Source of the DNA: Escherichia phage vB_EcoM_CQ615 | Direction: 5' to 3' (one strand) | Sequence record: PQ010280.1 | Length of the DNA stretch: 39,709 nucleotides | Shown: one piece after another, positions 1,578 through 39,709 of the stretch | How positions within the stretch are numbered: the first letter of the stretch is position 1 | Layout of the letters: every line of letters starts with the position of its first letter | Position numbers and translations under genes: made by a program | The notes under the pieces: generated by a model | What the model was told of the DNA's origin: nothing | The model's database searches: none | The model's input: the letters and a program-made list of their open reading frames with translations, nothing else

Positions 1578-1616
1578 AAACTCAAGGTCGCTCCTAGCGA
1601 GTGGCCTTTCATGATT
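1578..1616 (+). promoter_or_regulatory. Putative RNase III site (R0.5-like)
   Basis: ctcaaggtcgctcctagcgagtggcctttcatgatt hairpin motif. Confidence 0.5.
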
Positions 1617-1637
1617 ATCACTTTACTTACGGGAGTA

Positions 1638-1769
1638 ATGTATATGCTTACTATCGGTCTACTCACCGCTCTGGGTCTAGCTGTAGGCGCATCCTTTGGG
1701 AAGTCTTTGGGCGTAGCTGTAGGCTCTTACTTGGTCGCTTGTATCATCACGGGAGCACTGCGCAAATGA
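1638..1769 (+). CDS. 0.5: gp0.5-like small hydrophobic protein
   Basis: 43 aa, MYMLTIGLLTALGLAVGASFGKSLGVAVGSYLVACIITGALRK; SD gggag upstream; predicted single TM helix. Confidence 0.6.
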   Translation: MYMLTIGLLTALGLAVGASFGKSLGVAVGSYLVACIITGALRK

Positions 1770-1906
1770 TGAAACATTACGTTATGCCTATCCACACCAA
1801 GAACGGTGCTACAGTTTGCACACCTGATGGCTTCGCAATGAAACAACGCATTGAGCGCCTTAAGCGCGAACTGCGCATCAACCGCAAGCGTCTTCAACTA
1901 GGCTGA
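1766..1906 (+). CDS. 0.6: gp0.6-like small protein
   Basis: 46 aa, MMKHYVMPIHTKNGATVCTPDGFAMKQRIERLKRELRINRK...; start overlaps the 0.5 stop; the longer track ORF 1601..1906 is an upstream extension of this frame. Confidence 0.65.
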   Translation: MMKHYVMPIHTKNGATVCTPDGFAMKQRIERLKRELRINRKRLQLG

Positions 1907-1931
1907 AATTCTTGTAACTAAAGGCAACTGT

Positions 1932-2386
1932 ATGCTTAATTGCTCCAAAACGTGTATAGCATGTGGTGAGATGAAACCACTGAATATGTACTCGAAAAAT
2001 GCAGCATCGCGAGATGGTCACATCGGTACGTGTAAGAAATGCAAGGCAAAGCAACAAAGGGAACGAAGAGCCAAGGCAAAGGCTTCTGGTGCGCCAACTG
2101 AGAAGGCAATCAAGGATGCCAAGCGTAGACGAAACAATCACCTGAAAATTAGTTACGGTATCGACGAATCAGTGTACAAAAAGATGTACGAAGAACAACA
2201 CGGCGTCTGCGCCATATGTAAACAACCTGAAAGCATTGAGGGTAGGCGACTATGTGTTGACCATTCGCACATGACAGGAGACGTAAGGGTCTTCTGTGCT
2301 CAAACTGCAACAGAGGAATAGGCCTTCTTAAAGACTCACCTGAACTATTACGCAACGCTTTCTATTATTTAACTGGTAAACTCTAA
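1932..2386 (+). pseudogene. Endonuclease VII-family HNH (homing-type) endonuclease, interrupted by a -1 frameshift
   Basis: ATG 1932; CxxC pairs and core motif CAICKQPESIEGRRLCVDHSHMTGDVR in frame, frame lost at the GGG run 2287-2289 (in-frame stop at 2321); the +1 frame continues [32 protein letters not shown] to TAA 2384-2386, completing the HNH/Zn-finger signature. Confidence 0.7.
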
Positions 2387-2399
2387 AGGACACACTGTA

Positions 2400-3479
2400 A
2401 TGAACATTACCGACATCATGAACGCTATCGACGCAATCAAAGCACTGCCAATCTGTGAACTTGATAAGCGTCAAAGTATGCTCATTGATTTGCTGGTCGA
2501 GATGGTCAACAACGAAACGTGTGACGGTGAAATCACCAAGCTGGACAAGCCGCTTGAATATCAGGACTGGTGGACTACCTTAAGGTGCCTGACTACTGAC
2601 GCTGGCTTCACGATGCTCGGTAATGGTCACTTCTCCGCTGCATATAGTCACCCACTGCTGCCTAACAGAGTGATTAAGGTGGGCTTTAAGAAAGAGGATT
2701 CAGGCGCTGCGTATATCGCATTCTGCCGCATGTATCAGGGTCGCGCTGGTATCCCTAACGTCTACGATGTTCAACGCCATGCAGGCTGCTATACGGTGGT
2801 TCTTGATGCCCTGAATGAATGTGAGCGAGACGATAACTATGAGCACGACAAATACGCTGAGATTGCAAGCGACATCATTGACTGCAACTCTGATATGCAC
2901 GATTGGCGTGGCGGATGGGTTGGGGAGTTCGTCGAAACTTGCAAACTAATCCGCAAGTTCTTTGAGGGCATCGCTTCGTTCGACATGCACAGCGGGAACA
3001 TCATGTTCGACGATAATGACGTACCGTACATTACCGACCCTGTGTCATTCTCACAGAAGAAAGATGGTGGCGTGTTCAGCATGGACCCTGAGGAACTCAT
3101 CAAGGAAGTCGAGGAAGTCGCACGACAGAAAGAAATTGACCGCGCCAAGGAACGTAAAGAACGCCATGAGGGACGATTACAAGCGCGTAGAGTCAAACGC
3201 ATTAATCGCAAGGCACGTAAGGCACACCGCGCTAAGCGTGAAAGGATGCTTGCTGCGTGGCGCATGGCTGAGCGTCACGAACGGCGTAACCATGAGGTAG
3301 CTGTAGATGTGCTAGGAAGAACCAATAACGCTATGCTCTGGGCGCACATGTTCGCTGGGGACTTTAAGGCGCTTGAGGAACGAATCGCAGCGCACTGGTT
3401 CCAAGCTGACCGCATGGCTATAGCTAATGGTCTTCCACTAAACATTGATAAGAAACTTGACGCAATGCTAATGGGATGA
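2400..3479 (+). CDS. 0.7: Ser/Thr protein kinase and host transcription shutoff protein (gp0.7)
   Basis: 359 aa, [25 protein letters not shown]..., basic Arg/Lys-rich C-terminal region; near-identical to T7 gp0.7. Confidence 0.93.
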
Positions 3480-3549
3480 TAGTCTTATCTTACAGGTCAT
3501 CTGCGGGTGGCCTGAAATAGATACGATTACTGACCGAAAGAGGTACAAA

Positions 3550-6201
3550 ATGAGCACGATTAACATCGCTAAGAACGATTTCTCTGACATCGAACTGGCT
3601 GCTATCCCGTTCAACACTCTGGCTGACCACTATGGTGAGCGTCTAGCTCGCGAACAGTTGGCCCTTGAGCATGAGTCTTACGAGATGGGCGAGGCACGTT
3701 TCCGCAAGATGTTTGAGCGTCAACTCAAGGCCGGTGAGGTTGCAGACAATGCGGCTGCTAAGCCACTGATTACTACTCTACTGCCCAAGATGGTTACACG
3801 CATCAACGACTGGTTTGAGGAAGTGAAAGCTAAGCGTGGCAAACGTCCAACCGCTTTCCAGTTCCTGCAAGGAATCAAGCCGGAAGCCGTAGCGTATATC
3901 ACCATTAAGACTACTCTTGCTTGCCTAACGAGCGTAGACAATACAACCGTTCAGGCTGTAGCAAGCGCCATCGGACGGGCTATCGAGGAAGAGGCTCGCT
4001 TCGGTCGAATCCGTGACCTAGAAGCTAAGCACTTCAAGAAAAACGTTGAGGAACAACTAAACAAGCGCGTAGGGCACGTCTATAAGAAAGCATTCATGCA
4101 AGTAGTAGAGGCCGATATGCTCTCTAAGGGTCTACTCGGTGGCGAGGCGTGGTCTACATGGCACAAGGAAGATTCCATTCACGTAGGTGTGCGCTGCATT
4201 GAGATGCTCATTGAGTCCACCGGAATGGTTAGCTTGCACCGCCAAAATGCTGGCGTAGTGGGCCAAGACTCTGAGACTATCGAGCTGGCACACGAATACG
4301 CTGAGGCTATCGCAACACGGGCTGGGGCACTGGCGGGTATCTCTCCGATGTATCAGCCTTGCATAGTACCGCCTAAACCTTGGACCGGTGTAACTGGTGG
4401 TGGATACTGGGCCAACGGTCGCCGTCCACTGGTACTGGTGCGTACCCACAGCAAGAAGGCACTGATGCGCTACGAAGATGTTTACATGCCTGAGGTATAC
4501 AAGGCGATCAACATTGCGCAAAACACCGCTTGGAAAATCAACAAGAAAGTCCTAGCGGTCGCCAACGTAATCACCAAGTGGAAGCACTGCCCGGTCGAGG
4601 ACATCCCAGCGATTGAACGTGAAGAACTCCCGATGAAACCGGAAGACATCGACACGAATCCTGAGGCTCTCACTGCATGGAAACGTGCCGCTGCCGCTGT
4701 GTACCGTAAAGACAAGGCTCGCAAGTCTCGCCGCATAAGCCTTGAGTTCATGCTTGAGCAAGCCAATAAGTTCGCTAACCATAAGGCCATCTGGTTCCCT
4801 TACAACATGGACTGGCGCGGTCGTGTTTACGCTGTGTCAATGTTCAACCCGCAAGGTAACGACATGACCAAGGGACTGCTGACACTGGCTAAGGGTAAAC
4901 CAATCGGTAAAGAAGGTTACTACTGGCTGAAAATCCACGGTGCAAACTGTGCGGGTGTCGATAAGGTTCCGTTCCCTGAGCGCATCAAGTTCATTGAGGA
5001 CAACCACGAGAACATCATGGCTTGCGCTAAGTCTCCTCTGGAGAACACTTGGTGGGCTGAGCAAGATTCTCCGTTCTGCTTCCTTGCGTTCTGCTTTGAG
5101 TACGCTGGGGTACAACACCACGGCCTTAGCTACAACTGCTCTCTTCCGCTGGCGTTCGATGGGTCTTGCTCTGGTATTCAGCACTTCTCCGCGATGCTCC
5201 TTGATGAGATAGGTGGTCGTGCGGTTAACCTGCTGCCTAGTGAAACCGTTCAGGACATCTACGGGATTGTCGCTAAGAAAGTCAACGTGATTCTGCAAGA
5301 AGACGTAATCAACGGGACCGACAACGAAGTAGTTACCGTGACTGATGAGAACACTGGCGAAATCTCTGAGAAAGTTAAGCTGGGCACCAAGGCATTGGCT
5401 GGTCAGTGGTTGGCTTACGGTGTTACTCGCAGCGTGACTAAGCGTTCAGTCATGACGCTGGCTTACGGGTCCAAAGAGTTCGGCTTCCGTCAACAAGTGC
5501 TGGAAGATACCATTCAGCCAGCTATTGATTCCGGTAAAGGTCTGATGTTCACTCAACCGAATCAGGCCGCTGGATACATGGCGAAACTGATTTGGGAAGC
5601 TGTGAGCGTCACGGTGGTAGCTGCGGTTGAAGCAATGAACTGGCTTAAGTCTGCCGCTAAGCTGCTGGCTGCTGAGGTCAAAGATAAGAAGACTGGAGAG
5701 ATTCTTCGCAAGCGTTGCGCTGTGCATTGGGTAACTCCTGATGGGTTCCCAGTGTGGCAGGAATACAAGAAGCCAATTCAGACTCGCTTGAACCTGATGT
5801 TCCTCGGTCAGTTCCGCTTACAGCCGACCATTAACACCAACAAAGACAGCGAGATTGATGCACACAAACAGGAGTCCGGTATTGCTCCTAACTTTGTACA
5901 CAGCCAAGATGGTAGCCACCTGCGTAAGACTGTAGTGTGGGCGCATGAGAAGTACGGAATCGAATCATTTGCGTTGATTCACGACTCCTTCGGGACCATT
6001 CCGGCTGACGCTGCCAACCTGTTCAAAGCTGTTCGCGAAACTATGGTTGACACCTATGAGTCTTGCGATGTACTGGCTGACTTCTATGAGCAGTTCGCTG
6101 ACCAGTTACATGAGTCTCAATTGGATAAAATGCCAGCACTTCCGGCTAAAGGTAACTTGAATCTCCAAGACATCCTTAAGTCAGACTTCGCGTTCGCGTA
6201 A
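3550..6201 (+). CDS. 1: Single-subunit DNA-dependent RNA polymerase (gp1)
   Basis: 883 aa, near-identical to T7 RNAP including the specificity loop (QPTINTNKDSEIDAHKQESGIAPNFVHSQDGSH) and C-terminal FAFA; matches the T7-type promoters in the window. Confidence 0.98.
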   Translation: MSTINIAKNDFSDIELAAIPFNTLADHYGERLAREQLALEHESYEMGEARFRKMFERQLKAGEVADNAAAKPLITTLLPKMVTRINDWFEEVKAKRGKRPTAFQFLQGIKPEAVAYITIKTTLACLTSVDNTTVQAVASAIGRAIEEEARFGRIRDLEAKHFKKNVEEQLNKRVGHVYKKAFMQVVEADMLSKGLLGGEAWSTWHKEDSIHVGVRCIEMLIESTGMVSLHRQNAGVVGQDSETIELAHEYAEAIATRAGALAGISPMYQPCIVPPKPWTGVTGGGYWANGRRPLVLVRTHSKKALMRYEDVYMPEVYKAINIAQNTAWKINKKVLAVANVITKWKHCPVEDIPAIEREELPMKPEDIDTNPEALTAWKRAAAAVYRKDKARKSRRISLEFMLEQANKFANHKAIWFPYNMDWRGRVYAVSMFNPQGNDMTKGLLTLAKGKPIGKEGYYWLKIHGANCAGVDKVPFPERIKFIEDNHENIMACAKSPLENTWWAEQDSPFCFLAFCFEYAGVQHHGLSYNCSLPLAFDGSCSGIQHFSAMLLDEIGGRAVNLLPSETVQDIYGIVAKKVNVILQEDVINGTDNEVVTVTDENTGEISEKVKLGTKALAGQWLAYGVTRSVTKRSVMTLAYGSKEFGFRQQVLEDTIQPAIDSGKGLMFTQPNQAAGYMAKLIWEAVSVTVVAAVEAMNWLKSAAKLLAAEVKDKKTGEILRKRCAVHWVTPDGFPVWQEYKKPIQTRLNLMFLGQFRLQPTINTNKDSEIDAHKQESGIAPNFVHSQDGSHLRKTVVWAHEKYGIESFALIHDSFGTIPADAANLFKAVRETMVDTYESCDVLADFYEQFADQLHESQLDKMPALPAKGNLNLQDILKSDFAFA

Positions 6202-6852: not shown

Positions 6853-7878
6853 ATGATGAACATTAAGACCAACCCATTCAAAGCCGTGTCTTTCATAGAG
6901 TCTGCCATTAAGAAAGCTCTGGATAACGCTGGGTATCTTATTGCTGACATTAAGTACGATGGTGTGCGTGGTAACATCTGCGTAGACAATACCGCTAACT
7001 GCTGCTGGCTCTCTCGTGTATCCAAACCGATTCCGGCACTGTCTTACCTTAATGGGTTCGACGCACGTTGGCAGCGTCTACTAAAGGATGACCGTTGCTT
7101 CTACCCTGATGGCTTCATGCTGGATTGCGAACTTATGGTCAAGGGAGTGGACTTCAACACTGGCTCCGGCCTTCTGCGGACCAAGTGGCTCAACAAGAAG
7201 AACATGCAGTTCGATATTGGAGGTCCGTATGAATCGTGGGACGTGAGCCTGAAGGGACTTCCTTTCGGTATTGACCCGAACTTACTAACAGTTAAACTCT
7301 ACGCTATCCTTCCGTACCACATTGTGGAATCTGGGGAAGACTGTGATGTCATGACGTTGCTCATGCAGGAACACGTTAAGAACATGCTGCCTCTGCTACA
7401 GGAATACTTTCCTGAAATCGAATGGCAAGCGGCTGAGTCTTACGAGGTTTACGACATGGTAGAACTACAGCAACTGTACGAGAAGAAGCGTGAAGAAGGG
7501 CATGAGGGTCTCATTGTGAAAGACCCGATGTGCATCTACAAGCGCGGTAAGAAGTCCGGCTGGTGGAAACTTAAGCCTCTTGAGGAAGCTGACGGTATCA
7601 TTCAAGGTGTAAACTGGGGAACCGAAGGGCTTGCTAACGAAGGTAAGGTAATTGGATTCAAGGTGCTTCTTGAGACTGGTCGTCTTGTGGATGCCAATAA
7701 CATCTCTCGCGCCTTAATGGATGAATTTACAGCTAACGTTAAAGAACATGGCGAGGACTATTATAATGGCTGGGCTTGCCAGATTGGATTTATGGAGGAA
7801 ACACCAGATGGCTCATTGCGTCACCCGTCCTTCACCTGCTTCCGAGGAACTGAGGACAATCCGAAAGAGAAAGTATAA
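6853..7878 (+). CDS. 1.3: ATP-dependent DNA ligase (gp1.3)
   Basis: 341 aa, MMNIKTNPFKAVSF..., adenylation motif KYDGVRG; T7 ligase-like but shorter (T7: 359 aa) with divergent internal patches. Confidence 0.93.
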   Translation: MMNIKTNPFKAVSFIESAIKKALDNAGYLIADIKYDGVRGNICVDNTANCCWLSRVSKPIPALSYLNGFDARWQRLLKDDRCFYPDGFMLDCELMVKGVDFNTGSGLLRTKWLNKKNMQFDIGGPYESWDVSLKGLPFGIDPNLLTVKLYAILPYHIVESGEDCDVMTLLMQEHVKNMLPLLQEYFPEIEWQAAESYEVYDMVELQQLYEKKREEGHEGLIVKDPMCIYKRGKKSGWWKLKPLEEADGIIQGVNWGTEGLANEGKVIGFKVLLETGRLVDANNISRALMDEFTANVKEHGEDYYNGWACQIGFMEETPDGSLRHPSFTCFRGTEDNPKEKV

Positions 7879-8278
7879 GTATAACCCTGCGGCTCCTTCG
7901 GGAGTCATTTCTGCCTCTGGTAAACCCATAGGGTACAAGCGGAAAGATGGGTATTGGGTTCTTTCTTATGGAGGAAAGCAGTTACTTGCACACAGGGTGG
8001 TCTGGATGCTTAACTTCGGTGCAATACCCGATGGAATGGTGATAGACCACATTAACAGAAACCCTAGCGACAACCGCATAGAGAATCTTCGAGTAGTAAC
8101 TCAATCAGCTAACCTAAGGAATGTAGGCGTCCGGTCTCACTGTAGGAGTGGAGAGAAGTTTATCTCCCTTGATGTGAGAACCGGACGTTTTTCCGTTCGT
8201 ATCAGGAGAAAATCCTATGGAACATATGGTACTCTCGAAGAGGCTATAGCTGTGCGCGATGCTAATACGACTCACTAA
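7808..8278 (+). CDS. HNH endonuclease with AP2-like DNA-binding tail (homing-endonuclease-like); start uncertain
   Basis: Open frame to TAA 8276-8278; HNH core GYWVLSYGGKQLLAHRVVWMLNFGAIPDGMVIDHINRNPSDNRIENLRVVTQSANLRN, then SVRIRRKSYGTYGTLEEAIAVRDAN; the only in-frame ATG before the HNH core with an SD (GGAGGA 7794-7799) is 7808, inside the ligase 3' end; no ATG/GTG/TTG lies between the ligase stop and the core. Confidence 0.55.
   Translation: MAHCVTRPSPASEELRTIRKRKYKYNPAAPSGVISASGKPIGYKRKDGYWVLSYGGKQLLAHRVVWMLNFGAIPDGMVIDHINRNPSDNRIENLRVVTQSANLRNVGVRSHCRSGEKFISLDVRTGRFSVRIRRKSYGTYGTLEEAIAVRDANTTH
7888..7912 (+). terminator. Weak hairpin after the ligase gene (possible early terminator TE analogue)
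   Basis: ggctcc-ttcg-ggagtc: 6-bp stem with one G-U pair and a UUCG tetraloop, followed by auuucu; position matches where T7 places TE. Confidence 0.3.
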
Positions 8279-8407: not shown

Positions 8408-8668
8408 ATGTTTCGACTTCATTACAACAAAAGCATTAAGAATTTCACGGTTCGCCGTGCTGACCGTTCAATCGTATGTGCGAGCGAGCGCCGAGCTAAG
8501 TTACCTCTTATTGGTAACACAGTTCCTTTGGCACCGAGCGTCCACATCATTATCACCCGTGGTGACTTTGAGAAAGCAGTAGATAAGAAACGTCCGGTTC
8601 TTAGCGTGGCAGTGACCCGCTTCCCGTTCGTCCGTCTGTTACTCAAACGTATCAAGGAGGTGTTCTAA
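8408..8668 (+). CDS. 1.6: gp1.6-like protein
   Basis: 86 aa, [23 protein letters not shown]...; SD aaaggagac upstream. Confidence 0.8.
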
Positions 8669-8995
8669 TGACTATTAACCATAAAGAATATTGTCGCTCC
8701 GTACTTAGCTTTGGGTCGTGCGATTGTGGTGCCACTACGAACCACGTGTCCAACAAACAACAAGACGTAGACGGTGTTCGTACTCCGAGCCATTACATGC
8801 TGTTTGACGACATTGAGGCTATTGAAGTGATTGCCCGTTCGATGACCAGTGAGCAGTTCAAAGGGTACTGCTTCGGGAACGTACTTAAATATCGCCTACG
8901 TGCTGGTAAGAAATCCGAACTGGCTTACTTAGAGAAGGACATGGCGAAAGCTGAGTTCTACGGTGAACTGTACGAGAAACATAAGGATAAGTGCT

Positions 8996-9009
<14 letters not shown>
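8668..9009 (+). CDS. 1.7: gp1.7-like protein (nucleotide kinase family in T7), short form
   Basis: 113 aa; C-terminal about 70 aa (TPSHYMLFDDIEAIEVIARSMT...KYRLRAGKKSELAYLEKD...KHKDKCY) match the T7 gp1.7 C-terminus; N-terminal 45 aa differ; T7 gp1.7 is 196 aa. Confidence 0.75.
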
Positions 9010-10097: not shown

Positions 10098-10553
10098 GTG
10101 GCTGGCGCATACGCTGCGCGTGGTATCAGAAAGGTCGGGACATTCCGTTCCGGCCTAGAAGATAAGGTCTCTAAGCAGCTAGAGGGTAAGGGTATTAAGT
10201 TCGATTATGAACTGTGGAAAATCCCTTACGTTGTCCCTGCGAGCAACCATGTGTATACTCCAGACTTCCTGCTGCCTAACGGAATCTTTATTGAAACCAA
10301 AGGTTTATGGGAGAGTGACGACCGAAAGAAACACTTATTGATTCGCGAACAGTTTCCTGAACTGGACATCCGTCTGGTGTTCTCAAGCTCACGCACCAAG
10401 CTATACAAAGGGTCTCCGACCAGTTACGGCGAATGGTGTGAGAAGCACGGTATTCTGTTTGCTGACAAATTAATTCCTGTAGAATGGCTCAAAGAACCCA
10501 AAAAGGAGGTGCCATTTGACAAGCTGAAACAATCGAAGGGAGGAAAGAAATAA
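10098..10553 (+). CDS. 3: Endonuclease I, Holliday-junction resolvase (gp3)
   Basis: 151 aa, GTG start right after the 2.5 stop; ...YTPDFLLPNGIFIETKGLWESDDRKKHLLIREQFPELDIRLVF... Confidence 0.93.
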   Translation: MAGAYAARGIRKVGTFRSGLEDKVSKQLEGKGIKFDYELWKIPYVVPASNHVYTPDFLLPNGIFIETKGLWESDDRKKHLLIREQFPELDIRLVFSSSRTKLYKGSPTSYGEWCEKHGILFADKLIPVEWLKEPKKEVPFDKLKQSKGGKK

Positions 10554-33638: not shown

Positions 33639-35300
33639 ATGGCTAACGTAATTAAGACCGTTTTGACTTACCAGTTAGATGGCTCCACTCGTGATTTTAA
33701 TATCCCGTTTGAGTATCTAGCCCGTAAGTTCGTAGTGGTGACTCTTATTGGTGTAGACCGTAAGGTCCTCACGATTAATACAGACTATCGCTTTGCTACA
33801 CGTACTACCATCTCTCTGACCAAGGCTTGGGGTCCAGCCGATGGCTACACGACCATCGAGTTGCGTCGAGTAACCTCCACGACCGACCGATTGGTTGACT
33901 TTACGGACGGCTCAATCCTCCGTGCGTATGACCTTAACGTCGCTCAGATTCAAACGATGCACGTAGCGGAAGAGGCCCGTGACCTGACTGCTGATACCAT
34001 CGGTGTCAATAATGATGGTCACTTGGATGCCCGTGGTCGTCGAATTGTGAACCTTGCTAACGCCGTGGATGACCGTGATGCTGTTCCGCTGGGGCAACTC
34101 AAGACCATGAACCAGAACTCGTGGCAGGCGCGTAATGAGGCCCTACAGTTCCGTAATGAGGCTGAGACTTTCAGAAATCAAGCGGAGGGCTTTAAGAACG
34201 AGTCTAGCACTAACGCTACGAACACTAATCAGTGGCGTAATGAGGCTAAGGGGTTCCGTGATGAAGCAGAGCAGTTCAAGAATACGGCTGGTCAATATGC
34301 TACATCTGCTGGGAACTCTGCTACTGCCGCACATCAATCTGAGGTGAACGCTGCTAACTCCGCAACTGCTTCCGCTAACTCTGCTACTCTGGCAGAACAG
34401 CAAGCAGACCGCGCCGAGCGTGAGGCTGATAAACTTGGTAACTGGAATGGACTTGCTGGTGCTGTAGATAGTGTTCAGGGTGATAGTGTATTCTGGAAAG
34501 GAAGCGGCTATTGGGTCGGAGGTCCCGTATACCAACTACAAACGAACCACGCGTTTAGGTTCCGTATGGGTCTTTGGGAAGAAGGCGACTTCCTTAAGTC
34601 TGACTTCGCTATGGACAGACCGGACGGCATAGGGTTCATAGAGTATGCAGCGGACAAGACTGGGCAACATTGTCACCAGATTCGACTTAATCAGTTAACA
34701 ATAGCTGGCGGTGTGTTAGAGTCAGATGCTGATGATCGCATAGCTCACGCTTTCGCTGACCAGTACAACACTAAAGCTCCTTTCTTCCAACAGATTCGTG
34801 CACAATCTACAAGCTCATATCACCCAATAATAAAGCAACGAACTTACCAATCTGGACGGTGGGCAGGATGCTGGTCTATCGGTACATTGCTGACTGGAAC
34901 GAGTCCGTCATTCCACATACATATGAAAGACGAAGGGATAGATGGGAAACTTTGGACGTTCAATACCAATGGAGACTTCCGCGCCCCTGGGGAGATTTGG
35001 GCCGATGGTGGACGTGTGGTTGTACAGAATGGCTCTTTTAACCCTGCTGGTAGAGTGTGGGGTACTGCGTATGATTCCGGATACCTTGACGACTGGGTTC
35101 GAAGACATTTCATAGGGGATGTATACCTAGGTCCTCATGTGTGGCAACAACAAACTGGAGGTTATCAGGACATTATAGCACCATCTGGGCATGTGCAAAC
35201 AGGTACAACCGCTAGTAATGGAGCCGTTGCGGGTATCTTTGTAAGACCGGTATGGCTTGGTTTCCATAACGGCACAAAAAGAATCATTGCGTCGCAGTAA
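33639..35300 (+). CDS. 17: Tail fiber protein (gp17) with a non-T7 distal (receptor-binding) half
   Basis: 553 aa; N-terminal about 270 aa (MANVIKTVLTYQLDGSTRDFNIPFEYLARKFVVVTLIG...; repeat region FRNEAETFRNQAEGFKNE) match T7 gp17; from about residue 272 (nt 34455) the sequence diverges (GSGYWVGGPVYQLQ...GIFVRPVWLGFHNGTKRIIASQ). Confidence 0.93.
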   Translation: MANVIKTVLTYQLDGSTRDFNIPFEYLARKFVVVTLIGVDRKVLTINTDYRFATRTTISLTKAWGPADGYTTIELRRVTSTTDRLVDFTDGSILRAYDLNVAQIQTMHVAEEARDLTADTIGVNNDGHLDARGRRIVNLANAVDDRDAVPLGQLKTMNQNSWQARNEALQFRNEAETFRNQAEGFKNESSTNATNTNQWRNEAKGFRDEAEQFKNTAGQYATSAGNSATAAHQSEVNAANSATASANSATLAEQQADRAEREADKLGNWNGLAGAVDSVQGDSVFWKGSGYWVGGPVYQLQTNHAFRFRMGLWEEGDFLKSDFAMDRPDGIGFIEYAADKTGQHCHQIRLNQLTIAGGVLESDADDRIAHAFADQYNTKAPFFQQIRAQSTSSYHPIIKQRTYQSGRWAGCWSIGTLLTGTSPSFHIHMKDEGIDGKLWTFNTNGDFRAPGEIWADGGRVVVQNGSFNPAGRVWGTAYDSGYLDDWVRRHFIGDVYLGPHVWQQQTGGYQDIIAPSGHVQTGTTASNGAVAGIFVRPVWLGFHNGTKRIIASQ

Positions 35301-35309
35301 GGAGGAACA

Positions 35310-35687
35310 ATGCGAGTATTTACTAACTGGAAGTGGACCGAAGGGTCTTACTTTGGAAAACCCATCTATGAGATTCGCGACAACAGTAACGTTGATTGGT
35401 ACACCTTAATGGATGAACTAGATGAGCGCCAAGAAACATGGGTGGTAGGTATTGGGCCTAGAGGAGACGTTATGTGGTTCACTGATGGACCCGTGTCTGG
35501 ACTGTACGTGCCTGTAGATGGAGGGACCGTTGTAGTAACTGATTCTTTCGAGTTCTCTGACAACTGGCGAGGGTGTACATGGGACGGTAAGAAATTCCAC
35601 GCACCAGAAGAAGCCCAGAAGCGAACTAAGGAGGACATTGAGCAGGACTTACTGAAACTCATGGCTGAGTTGAAGGGTCTAGAATAA
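35310..35687 (+). CDS. Hypothetical 125-aa protein between tail fiber and holin; candidate fiber-associated factor
   Basis: ATG 35310 with strong SD (taaggagg) overlapping the gene 17 stop; MRVFTNWKWTEGSYFGKPIYEIRDNSNVDWY...DNWRGCTWDGKKFHAPEEAQKRTKEDIEQDLLKLMAELKGLE; no gene sits here in canonical T7. Confidence 0.65.
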   Translation: MRVFTNWKWTEGSYFGKPIYEIRDNSNVDWYTLMDELDERQETWVVGIGPRGDVMWFTDGPVSGLYVPVDGGTVVVTDSFEFSDNWRGCTWDGKKFHAPEEAQKRTKEDIEQDLLKLMAELKGLE

Positions 35688-35708
35688 TTATAACAAGGAA
35701 AGGCGTGT

Positions 35709-35724
35709 GGTCCACGGATGGACC
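35709..35724 (+). promoter_or_regulatory. Short hairpin upstream of the holin gene
   Basis: ggtcca-cgga-tggacc: perfect 6-bp inverted repeat in the 17.5 leader. Confidence 0.35.
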
Positions 35725-35743
35725 CTTTAAGGGAGGACGCTAC

Positions 35744-35947
35744 ATGCTGTCTTTAGATTTTAACAATGAGTTAGTCAAGGCTGCACCTATTGTTGGCACA
35801 GGTGTGGCTGATGGCGCTGCGAGGCTTTTCTTCGGGCTGAGTCTTAATGAGTGGTTCTATGTTGCCGCTATCGCCTATACAGTGGTTCAGATTGGTGCCA
35901 AGGTAGTCGATAAGATGATTGACTGGAAGAAAGCTAATAAGGAGTGA
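35744..35947 (+). CDS. 17.5: Class II holin (gp17.5)
   Basis: 67 aa from the internal ATG with SD aagggagg; MLSLDFNNELVKAAPIVGTGVADGAARLFFGLSLNEWFYVAAIAYTVVQIGAKVVDKMIDWKKANKE. Confidence 0.85.
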   Translation: MLSLDFNNELVKAAPIVGTGVADGAARLFFGLSLNEWFYVAAIAYTVVQIGAKVVDKMIDWKKANKE

Positions 35948-38569: not shown

Positions 38570-39013
38570 ATGATAAGCAAGAAGAAGTATGTTGTCGATA
38601 AGGAGACTGGTTGCTGGAACTTTAAGGGATGTAAGACTAAGACTGGTTATGGTCGTATTCGCGTGAATGGAGTCCATTGGATGGCCCACAGGTATTCCCT
38701 GAGTTGTCATCTAGGCAGACCGATAGCTGACGAAATGGTTGTGATGCACATGTGTGATAACCCCTCATGTGTTAACCCTGAGCACCTTAAGGAAGGGACT
38801 CAGAAGGAAAACATAGAGGACTGCATATCAAAAGGTCGCGCAACTAAGGCCACAGGTAAACGCGATGCGTCGAAGAGAGACCCTAGCGAGGAACGTAAGG
38901 CTATAGTTATTCGTAGATACCATAAAGGCTGGACCGCAACGTCCATAGCGAGATACCATAAGCTCTCTGTGGCGTGGGTCAAGAGGGTCATTGAGGATTA
39001 CCTAAGTGATTGA
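38570..39013 (+). CDS. HNH endonuclease with C-terminal helix-turn-helix, directly downstream of the terminase
   Basis: ATG 38570 with SD aaggagg; 147 aa; GCWNFKGCKTKTGYGRIRVNGVHWMAHRYS...MHMCDNPSCVNPEHLKEGTQKENIEDC (classic HNH), then basic linker and HTH-like RRYHKGWTATSIARYHKLSVAWVKRVI. Confidence 0.8.
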   Translation: MISKKKYVVDKETGCWNFKGCKTKTGYGRIRVNGVHWMAHRYSLSCHLGRPIADEMVVMHMCDNPSCVNPEHLKEGTQKENIEDCISKGRATKATGKRDASKRDPSEERKAIVIRRYHKGWTATSIARYHKLSVAWVKRVIEDYLSD

Positions 39014-39582: not shown

Positions 39583-39709
39583 ACCTAAAGTTCCCCCATA
39601 GGGGTACCTAAAGCCCAGCCAATCACCTAAAGTCAACCTTCGGTTGACCTTGAGGGTTCCCTAGGGTTGGGATGACCCTTTGGTTTACCTTTGAGTGTCT
39701 CCTTGTCCC
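39583..39709. repeat. Right copy of the direct terminal repeat (runs to the window end)
   Basis: Identical to 1..127; upstream 39569-39582 (tctcacaatgtacgg) resembles the start of the T7 terminal repeat, so the true repeat is probably about 141 nt or more. Confidence 0.9.

Follow-up and report, generated by a model that had tools for sequence, protein, structure and literature searches.

The window, by which we mean the whole 39,709-nt stretch of Escherichia phage vB_EcoM_CQ615 (PQ010280.1) that was analyzed, appears from its sequence to be a complete-looking genome of a T7-like phage, resembling members of Teseptimavirus. When the window was searched by tblastn with 53 T7 proteins, the T7 gene order was recovered from 0.3 (1071-1421) to 19.5, and gene 1 encoding RNA polymerase (3550-6201), 4A, 5, 8, 12, 15, 16, and 19 each gave a single full-length match in one frame. 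The nearest GenBank phages, namely N30, C5, 04922B, WW2, and Yep_9, are only 91-95% identical to it. The window starts at T7 position 16, and its nucleotides 1-127 are exactly the same as 39583-39709, a redundancy that has the appearance of a k-mer overlap left by an assembler and not of a true direct terminal repeat, which is 160 bp long in T7. As for individual genes, gp1.7 (8668-9009) is a short DUF3310 form of 113 aa, matching T7 gp1.7 over residues 119-195 only, and the tail-fiber gene 17 (34505-35744) matches its T7 counterpart up to residue 289, its C-terminal receptor-binding part being unrelated to T7.

Between genes 0.6 and 0.7, where the tblastn matches with T7 proteins place it in agreement with the first-pass annotation, lies a nuclease gene whose reading frame is broken (Table 1). 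The ATG at 1932 opens a 129-aa ORF (1932-2321), which reads ...CVDHSHMTGDVR to codon 119 (AGG, 2286-2288), the same stretch before the break, through codon 119, also being given as ...CAICKQPESIEGRRLCVDHSHMTGDVR. It then continues with the out-of-frame residues VFCAQTATEE and a stop. As can be seen in the translations of both frames, the ORF indeed leaves frame at the GGG run to which the first-pass annotation had pointed. The frame that begins at 2288 is free of stops for 32 codons and ends with a TAA at 2384-2386, with which the ribosome-binding region of gene 0.7 also opens. These 32 stop-free codons had previously been described as lying in the +1 frame; their number stands, but the direction does not, since the continuation lies one base back and would require a -1 shift of the ribosome. 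When a repaired protein in which one G is restored was compared with the window by tblastn, it gave two adjoining matches in frames 3 and 2 (1932-2303 and 2285-2383), and the same search of the window revealed no other, intact gene of the Endo VII type that might stand in for the broken one. Separate translation of the 3′ fragment was considered and rejected: its frame has no start codon, and the list of ORFs of ≥25 aa contains none that ends at 2386.

Table 1. Features of the nuclease locus between genes 0.6 and 0.7 of the window
Feature	Position	Strand	Evidence
Gene 0.6 (46 aa)	1766..1906	+	tblastn with T7 gp0.6A; PF26851 on the identical gene in L010-L012
Optional nuclease cassette, ~494 bp	1890..2383	+	Alignments with WW2, Yep_9, T7, and 04922B
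Putative Shine-Dalgarno-like AAAGG, 7 nt 5′ of ATG 1932	1920..1924	+	Read off the sequence
Nuclease gene part 1, codons 1-119, native frame	1932..2288	+	Translation, Pfam, T4 Endo VII alignment, conserved columns
Part 1, N-terminal Cys4 zinc ribbon (C8, C11, C34, C37)	1953-2042	+	Translation, conserved columns
Part 1, C93/C96	2208-2219	+	Translation, T4 alignment
Part 1, D110-H111-S112-H113	2259-2270	+	Translation, T4 alignment
Part 1, R119	2286-2288	+	Translation, T4 alignment
GGG run, one G short of wild-type GGGG (AGG GGT = R119 G120)	2287..2289	+	Alignment and blastn against 20 related loci
Out-of-frame ORF tail, then TAG	2289..2321	+	ORF list
Nuclease gene part 2, codons 120-151 and TAA, frame one base back	2288..2386	+	Translation, T4 Endo VII C58/C61/N62 alignment
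Part 2, C123	2297-2299	+	Translation, T4 alignment
Part 2, C126	2306-2308	+	Translation, T4 alignment
Part 2, N127	2309-2311	+	Translation, T4 alignment
Gene 0.7 protein kinase, conserved right-hand neighbor	2400..3479	+	tblastn with T7 proteins, ORF list, identical on public contigs

The family to which the gene belongs is clear. With one G restored, the 151-aa protein scores 86.6 bits against PF02945 (Endonuclease_7), with profile positions 3-81 of 82 covered, and passes the gathering threshold of 23.6 bits over the full domain, while the ORF as encoded scores 44.6 bits over positions 3-55 only. The Pfam scan of the frame-corrected translation, proposed as a check in the first-pass annotation, thus returned a match over the whole profile. 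A PHROGs match to "endonuclease VII" (8.5e-39), a PDB sequence search whose best matches among solved structures were Hpy99I (1e-6) and T4 Endo VII (1e-4), and a Foldseek search with Hpy99I and T4 Endo VII as the top matches all agree with the earlier reading of the product as an Endo VII/HNH protein with zinc fingers. In an AF2 model of an intact allele (P0016, 99% identical), as opposed to the truncated product, strands span residues 108-111 and 118-122 and a helix spans 124-132, with a mean pLDDT of 94.4, and this intact relative is predicted to adopt the beta-beta-alpha-Me (HNH) fold. Alignment with T4 Endo VII pairs C93/C96 with C23/C26, D110-H111-S112-H113 with D40-H41-D42-H43, R119 with R54, C123/C126 with C58/C61, and N127 with N62; the roles of these T4 residues are summarized in PMC6083498. 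In an alignment of 60 homologues, the catalytic and zinc residues are invariant or nearly so, and a second nearly invariant Cys4 set (C8, C11, C34, and C37) is found toward the N terminus. This N-terminal Cys4 zinc ribbon presumably binds DNA.

The break lies in the second strand of the catalytic motif, at a point that corresponds to the step from R54 to G55 in T4 Endo VII. The 129-aa product keeps C93/C96, D110, H111, H113, and R119 and is without C123, C126, and N127. A complete CX2C...D-H-x-H...R...CX2C-N motif in one polypeptide, which the 129-aa product does not possess, is present once the G is restored, as in the naturally occurring protein P0082. Judging from the sequence, the product of the three-G allele should be catalytically dead, because the frameshift removes the second CxxC pair, i.e., two of the four zinc ligands, together with the metal-binding catalytic Asn.

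Intact alleles of the gene exist in relatives. Contigs were found in public assemblies via exact occurrence of the gp0.7 and gp0.6 proteins of the window, and each contig that fully covers the gene has, between 0.6 and 0.7, an Endonuclease_7 gene for a protein of 151 aa; the exception is the short contig L028, in which A5 is reduced to A4 at 1995-1999, close to the contig end. Five independent samples (SRR27143248, SRR14663583, SRR14663215, SRR14573573, and SRR14654592) match 1932-2386 (455 nt) without mismatch, their one difference being GGGG in place of GGG, and a 151-aa protein is encoded in each. The repaired protein is itself present in the protein collection as P0082, on 6 contigs. This vindicates the claim that one extra G would restore an enzyme of ~150 aa, and the comparison with homologous genes in related phages that had been suggested as a check has yielded identical alleles with GGGG. 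One of the contigs, L010 (SRR27143248), is identical to the window over 1580-4661 (3.08 kb) save for the one G. The identical block spans 0.5, 0.6, the cassette with the nuclease gene, 0.7, and one third of gene 1 at its 5′ end; within gene 1, there is a sharp switch at 4662 to sequence that is ~9% divergent. L010 is therefore a different phage from the window, and position 4662 is a recombination boundary, which would fit co-conversion around a homing site. Two other contigs, L011 and L012, differ from the window at a few other sites.

At the G-run, all 20 related loci that were compared by blastn and alignment are longer than the window by one base or more, and the 129-aa product is absent from 15 billion proteins and from every database searched. 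Four Gs are therefore wild type, and the three-G allele is private to the window genome. Exact-pattern scans for G-run variants returned nothing from IMG/VR viral contigs or JGI metagenome contigs; all of the close relatives come from Logan, ENA, and GenBank. We found 57 distinct proteins falling into five clusters at ≥81% identity, nearly all of them 150-155 aa in length and a few 160-180 aa. The dN/dS of the intact alleles is 0.06-0.13, which indicates that the nuclease gene is normally functional. Such strong purifying selection could reflect, instead of homing, a function useful to the phage, such as exclusion of competitors or attack on host DNA.

The missing G may have been lost by the phage or by its assembly. 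In the latter case, the phage would truly have GGGG and an intact 151-aa nuclease, one G having dropped out of the consensus through an assembly or sequencing error. This would account for a single base at a homopolymer being all that separates the window from the five samples (455 nt) and from L010 (3.08 kb), as well as for a three-G allele that is known nowhere else. However, the window contains 60 G4 runs and 179 homopolymer runs of at least 4 nt, and no other frame break was found in the T7-homologous genes that align full-length, from which it follows that the homopolymer error rate of the assembly is very low; were the platform apt to call four bases as three, other genes should have been struck as well. 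Moreover, the exact 127-nt overlap of the ends, which we take to be typical of a SPAdes k=127 Illumina assembly, suggests a platform on which consensus indels in 4-base runs are rare. Last, frameshifts in relatives' copies of the nuclease gene are demonstrably common in nature; some of them are of +2 bases and one is present on 8 contigs, which is hard to put down to errors. Because of the lack of other frame breaks, the SPAdes/Illumina-like overlap, and the frameshifts seen in relatives, we consider an error rather unlikely and favor, on these sequence comparisons, a real and very recent loss of one G, which we regard as probable.

A genuine three-G allele might still give rise to the full-length enzyme, were the two frames joined by programmed -1 frameshifting or by transcriptional slippage. 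The downstream frame is open and perfectly conserved, a Shine-Dalgarno-like AGGAG is found at 2276-2280, and the codon at the break, AGG, is rare in E. coli, all of which would suit recoding. Yet GUA AGG GUC offers no X XXY YYZ heptamer, and a shift from AGG to AAG would allow the tRNA-Arg to re-pair at 2/3 positions only. The next 100 nt downstream form no stronger structure than shuffled sequences do (z = +0.68), the AGGAG with its flanks also occurs in alleles with a contiguous ORF, where it encodes T-G-D, and a run of three Gs is too short for the polymerase to slip on. Relatives that are nearly identical do without recoding altogether: copies from 17 loci are in frame at the aligned site, and the few frameshifted relatives vary in the size of the indel, so that no shift is conserved. 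In summary, under the head "PROGRAMMED FRAMESHIFTING", the site shows none of the hallmarks of a programmed -1 site, i.e., heptamer, stimulatory structure, and conserved shift. With the signal absent and the orthologues intact, we view recoding as extremely improbable, just as the first-pass annotation had ranked programmed frameshifting least likely of its explanations.

Alignments with relatives show that the nuclease gene sits in a cassette with defined edges. On the left, homology with WW2, Yep_9, T7, and 04922B stops at AACCGCAAGC (1880-1889) inside gene 0.6, and the last ~6 codons of this gene (from ~1890, ...RLQLG and the stop) come from the cassette rather than from the 0.6 shared by the relatives. 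On the right, homology is back at TAAAGGACACA (2384 onward), in the ribosome-binding region of 0.7. The junction exists in three states: empty in WW2 and Yep_9, with ~30 bp between 0.6 and 0.7; T7-type in T7 and 04922B, with an unrelated 0.6A tail and 0.6B; and occupied by the cassette in the window, WX1/WX2, and Logan/ENA contigs. Orthologues are found 5′ of 0.7 in three genera, Teseptimavirus, Teetrevirus, and Przondovirus. The gene had been proposed to be an insertion absent from T7 at this position. While it is indeed absent from T7, the T7 site is not empty, since it holds the 0.6A tail and 0.6B, and the difference from T7 is thus a cassette replacement; the empty state is that of WW2 and Yep_9. 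The "possible gene 0.6B" of T7, a frameshift extension, was considered as a nuclease remnant and rejected, an alignment of T7 1630-2045 showing no homology beyond what forced alignment gives. The three junction states are in keeping with an F-CphI-type, free-standing homing endonuclease.

The ribosome-binding site of the nuclease gene and the surroundings of its start at 1915-1934 (TAACTAAAGGCAACTGTATG) resemble those of gene 0.7 at 2381-2402 (CTCTAAAGGACACACTGTAATG), a likeness that may be a junction duplication from insertion of the cassette.

Elsewhere in the window, an ORF at 7721-8278 (+) with a strong match to the HNH_3 domain (PF13392, 72.9 bits) is probably another free-standing homing endonuclease. 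It lies between the ligase gene 1.3 and gene 1.5, in the place of T7 gene 1.4, and shares the 3′ end of 1.3, which it reads in a different frame; its true start is probably 3′ of 7878. Following terminase gene 19 is an inserted 147-aa ORF (38570-39013, +) that combines HNH_3 and HTH_23 domains; its relatives in T7, gp2.8/gp7.7 (39-44% identity), are encoded at other positions. At the positions that 2.8, 3.8, 5.3, and 7.7 occupy in T7, the window lacks any counterpart of these HNH-like or optional genes. The set of homing endonuclease-like genes is wholly unlike that of T7, the backbone being ~90-99% similar at the protein level.

Next to the intact alleles, several relatives carry independently broken copies of the nuclease gene. 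In PDP351P2 (L003, Teseptimavirus, OZ035763; locus at ~2400-2770), the G-run has gone from 4 to 5, i.e., it has one extra base, and a 5′ deletion has joined codon 39 of gene 0.6 in frame to codon 70 of the nuclease; the resulting fusion protein (P0040) has both Phage_T7_0_6 and Endonuclease_7 Pfam domains. In L013 (ERR3648472), the G-run has gone from 5 to 7 and an A5 run has been cut to A4. To judge from the protein tails, P0090 (...GDVRGASMLKLQQRNRPT) fits a change from G5 to G6, P0101 (...GDVRGVFCAQTATEE) would have a net +2 at the same G-run, and P0104, a 78-aa protein found on 8 contigs, would have gained one A in an A4 run. The more distant KpV92 has a frameshift after CNRG. Altogether, five events fall at the same G-run, in the window (4 to 3), PDP351P2, P0090, P0101, and L013, while three other homopolymer runs in the closest alleles have one event each. 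The nuclease gene is therefore one that is normally functional and has been lost repeatedly, and the G-run appears from these sequences to be a mutational hotspot. No adaptive explanation is needed for it, because the run follows from coding a conserved Arg-Gly as AGG/CGG plus GGN.

The clustering of these events could alternatively mean that the G-run is a reversible contingency switch, by which the nuclease is turned on and off in phage populations, the three-G allele being the "off" phase. If this were true, populations could toggle a nuclease that is useful in co-infection and costly otherwise. Five independent length variants at one run (3, 5, 6, 6, and 7 G vs. a wild type of 4 or 5), set beside the single events at each of the three other runs in the closest alleles, and the strong purifying selection on intact alleles would be in keeping with a switch. 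However, 4-5 G is short for a contingency locus, the conserved Arg-Gly codons already explain the run, no reversion was observed, and the further lesions in PDP351P2 (the 5′ deletion) and L013 (a second frameshift) point to one-way decay. We therefore deem a switch very unlikely.

Which of the known Endo VII-motif enzymes does the intact protein resemble most? In PMC6083498, an "endonuclease clade" is distinguished by a C-terminal Endo VII motif and by occurrence in phages that have a separate resolvase. In the protein studied here, the motif occupies residues 93-127 of 151, i.e., it is C-terminal, and a separate resolvase gene, that of gp3 endonuclease I, is intact at 10104-10550; moreover, the gene is optional, some close relatives having it and others not, and its neighbors are conserved genes. 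Since the motif is C-terminal and the phage also encodes T7 endonuclease I, we group the protein with F-CphI and Hpy99I and not with the resolvases. F-CphI (cyanophage S-PM2 ORF177; Mob DNA 2018, PMC6083498) similarly has a C-terminal CX2C...DHxH...CX2C-N behind an N-terminal extension, and is a free-standing optional gene between conserved genes of a phage with its own Holliday-junction resolvase, the likeness being one by published criteria. According to the same article, F-CphI differs in that it experimentally cleaves intron-less psbA and works with a group I intron, whereas the window gene has no intron and is frameshifted.

Hpy99I, a type II restriction enzyme (PDB 3fc3), is the best match both by sequence (1e-6, residues 92-147) and by fold (Foldseek 1.2e-5), although global superposition is poor, with an rmsd of ~14 Å over 156 columns. 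It is described in PMC2699513 as having two Cys4 zinc modules, the second of which carries the catalytic motif, as in the protein studied here. It differs in being a bacterial enzyme paired with a methylase and in having an extra beta-barrel, whereas no methylase adjoins the window gene. With T4 Endo VII (gp49; PDB 1en7, 1e7l, and 2qnf), the catalytic core aligns and the folds superpose with an rmsd of 2.9-3.7 Å over 86-91 columns. In contrast to the window protein, T4 Endo VII has its motif at the N terminus, followed by a C-terminal dimerization domain to which the phmmer sequence search returned no counterpart, its match being to T4 residues 12-70 only; the window protein carries a zinc ribbon at its N terminus and extends 24 residues beyond N127, and the resolvase of this phage is a T7-type gp3. 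A T4-type Holliday-junction resolvase was accordingly rejected, the motif not being N-terminal and the likeness to gp49 not extending over its whole length.

Orthologues are already annotated as "endonuclease VII" in vB_YenP_WX1/WX2 (Yersinia), Klebsiella phage 31, Shigella phage ESh12, and Escherichia phage HZP2/HZ2R8. They too are located 5′ of gene 0.7, share 73-89% aa identity with the protein, are 147-166 aa long, and are all intact, while the window copy lacks one G. The literature searched contained no experimental characterization of these orthologues, and no published cleavage or inheritance data for the protein or its close homologues. Some GenBank product names at this locus are shifted or wrong: in vB_YenP_WX1 (L001), the kinase is labeled "DNA-directed RNA polymerase," and in vB_YenP_WX2 (L002), the Endo VII gene is labeled "protein kinase."

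Taken together, these findings are probably best explained by an Endo VII-motif nuclease of the F-CphI/Hpy99I clade, carried in an optional 0.6/0.7 cassette and inactivated by a genuine, very recent loss of a G. The intact 151-aa protein is most likely a homing or marker-exclusion nuclease. It would combine an N-terminal Cys4 zinc ribbon with a C-terminal catalytic module stabilized by the second Cys4 set. We infer that such a nuclease would cut related phage genomes without the cassette, and that repair of the cut from a cassette-bearing genome would copy the cassette in. Loss of one G from the GGGG that spans codons Arg119-Gly120 would then have left the window genome with a 129-aa product ending inside the second catalytic beta-strand.

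The locus is provisionally best described as a just-inactivated gene for a free-standing homing endonuclease. For annotation, it should be labeled as a pseudogene of the endonuclease VII (HNH) family with a frameshift, or marked for a check of the reads, and not entered as a 129-aa "hypothetical protein." What is new is the frameshifted allele; the kind of gene is known, related phages having it annotated as "endonuclease VII." Indels have struck one short G-run again and again, which is a modest novelty that leaves the understanding of phage biology unchanged, and the locus is otherwise an ordinary example of mobile-gene decay. It nevertheless provides a snapshot, within one small cassette of T7-like phages, of the life cycle of a homing endonuclease (invasion, maintenance, decay, and loss), all stages of which are seen among close relatives as empty sites, intact genes under selection, single and double frameshifts, and a 5′-deleted copy fused to 0.6.
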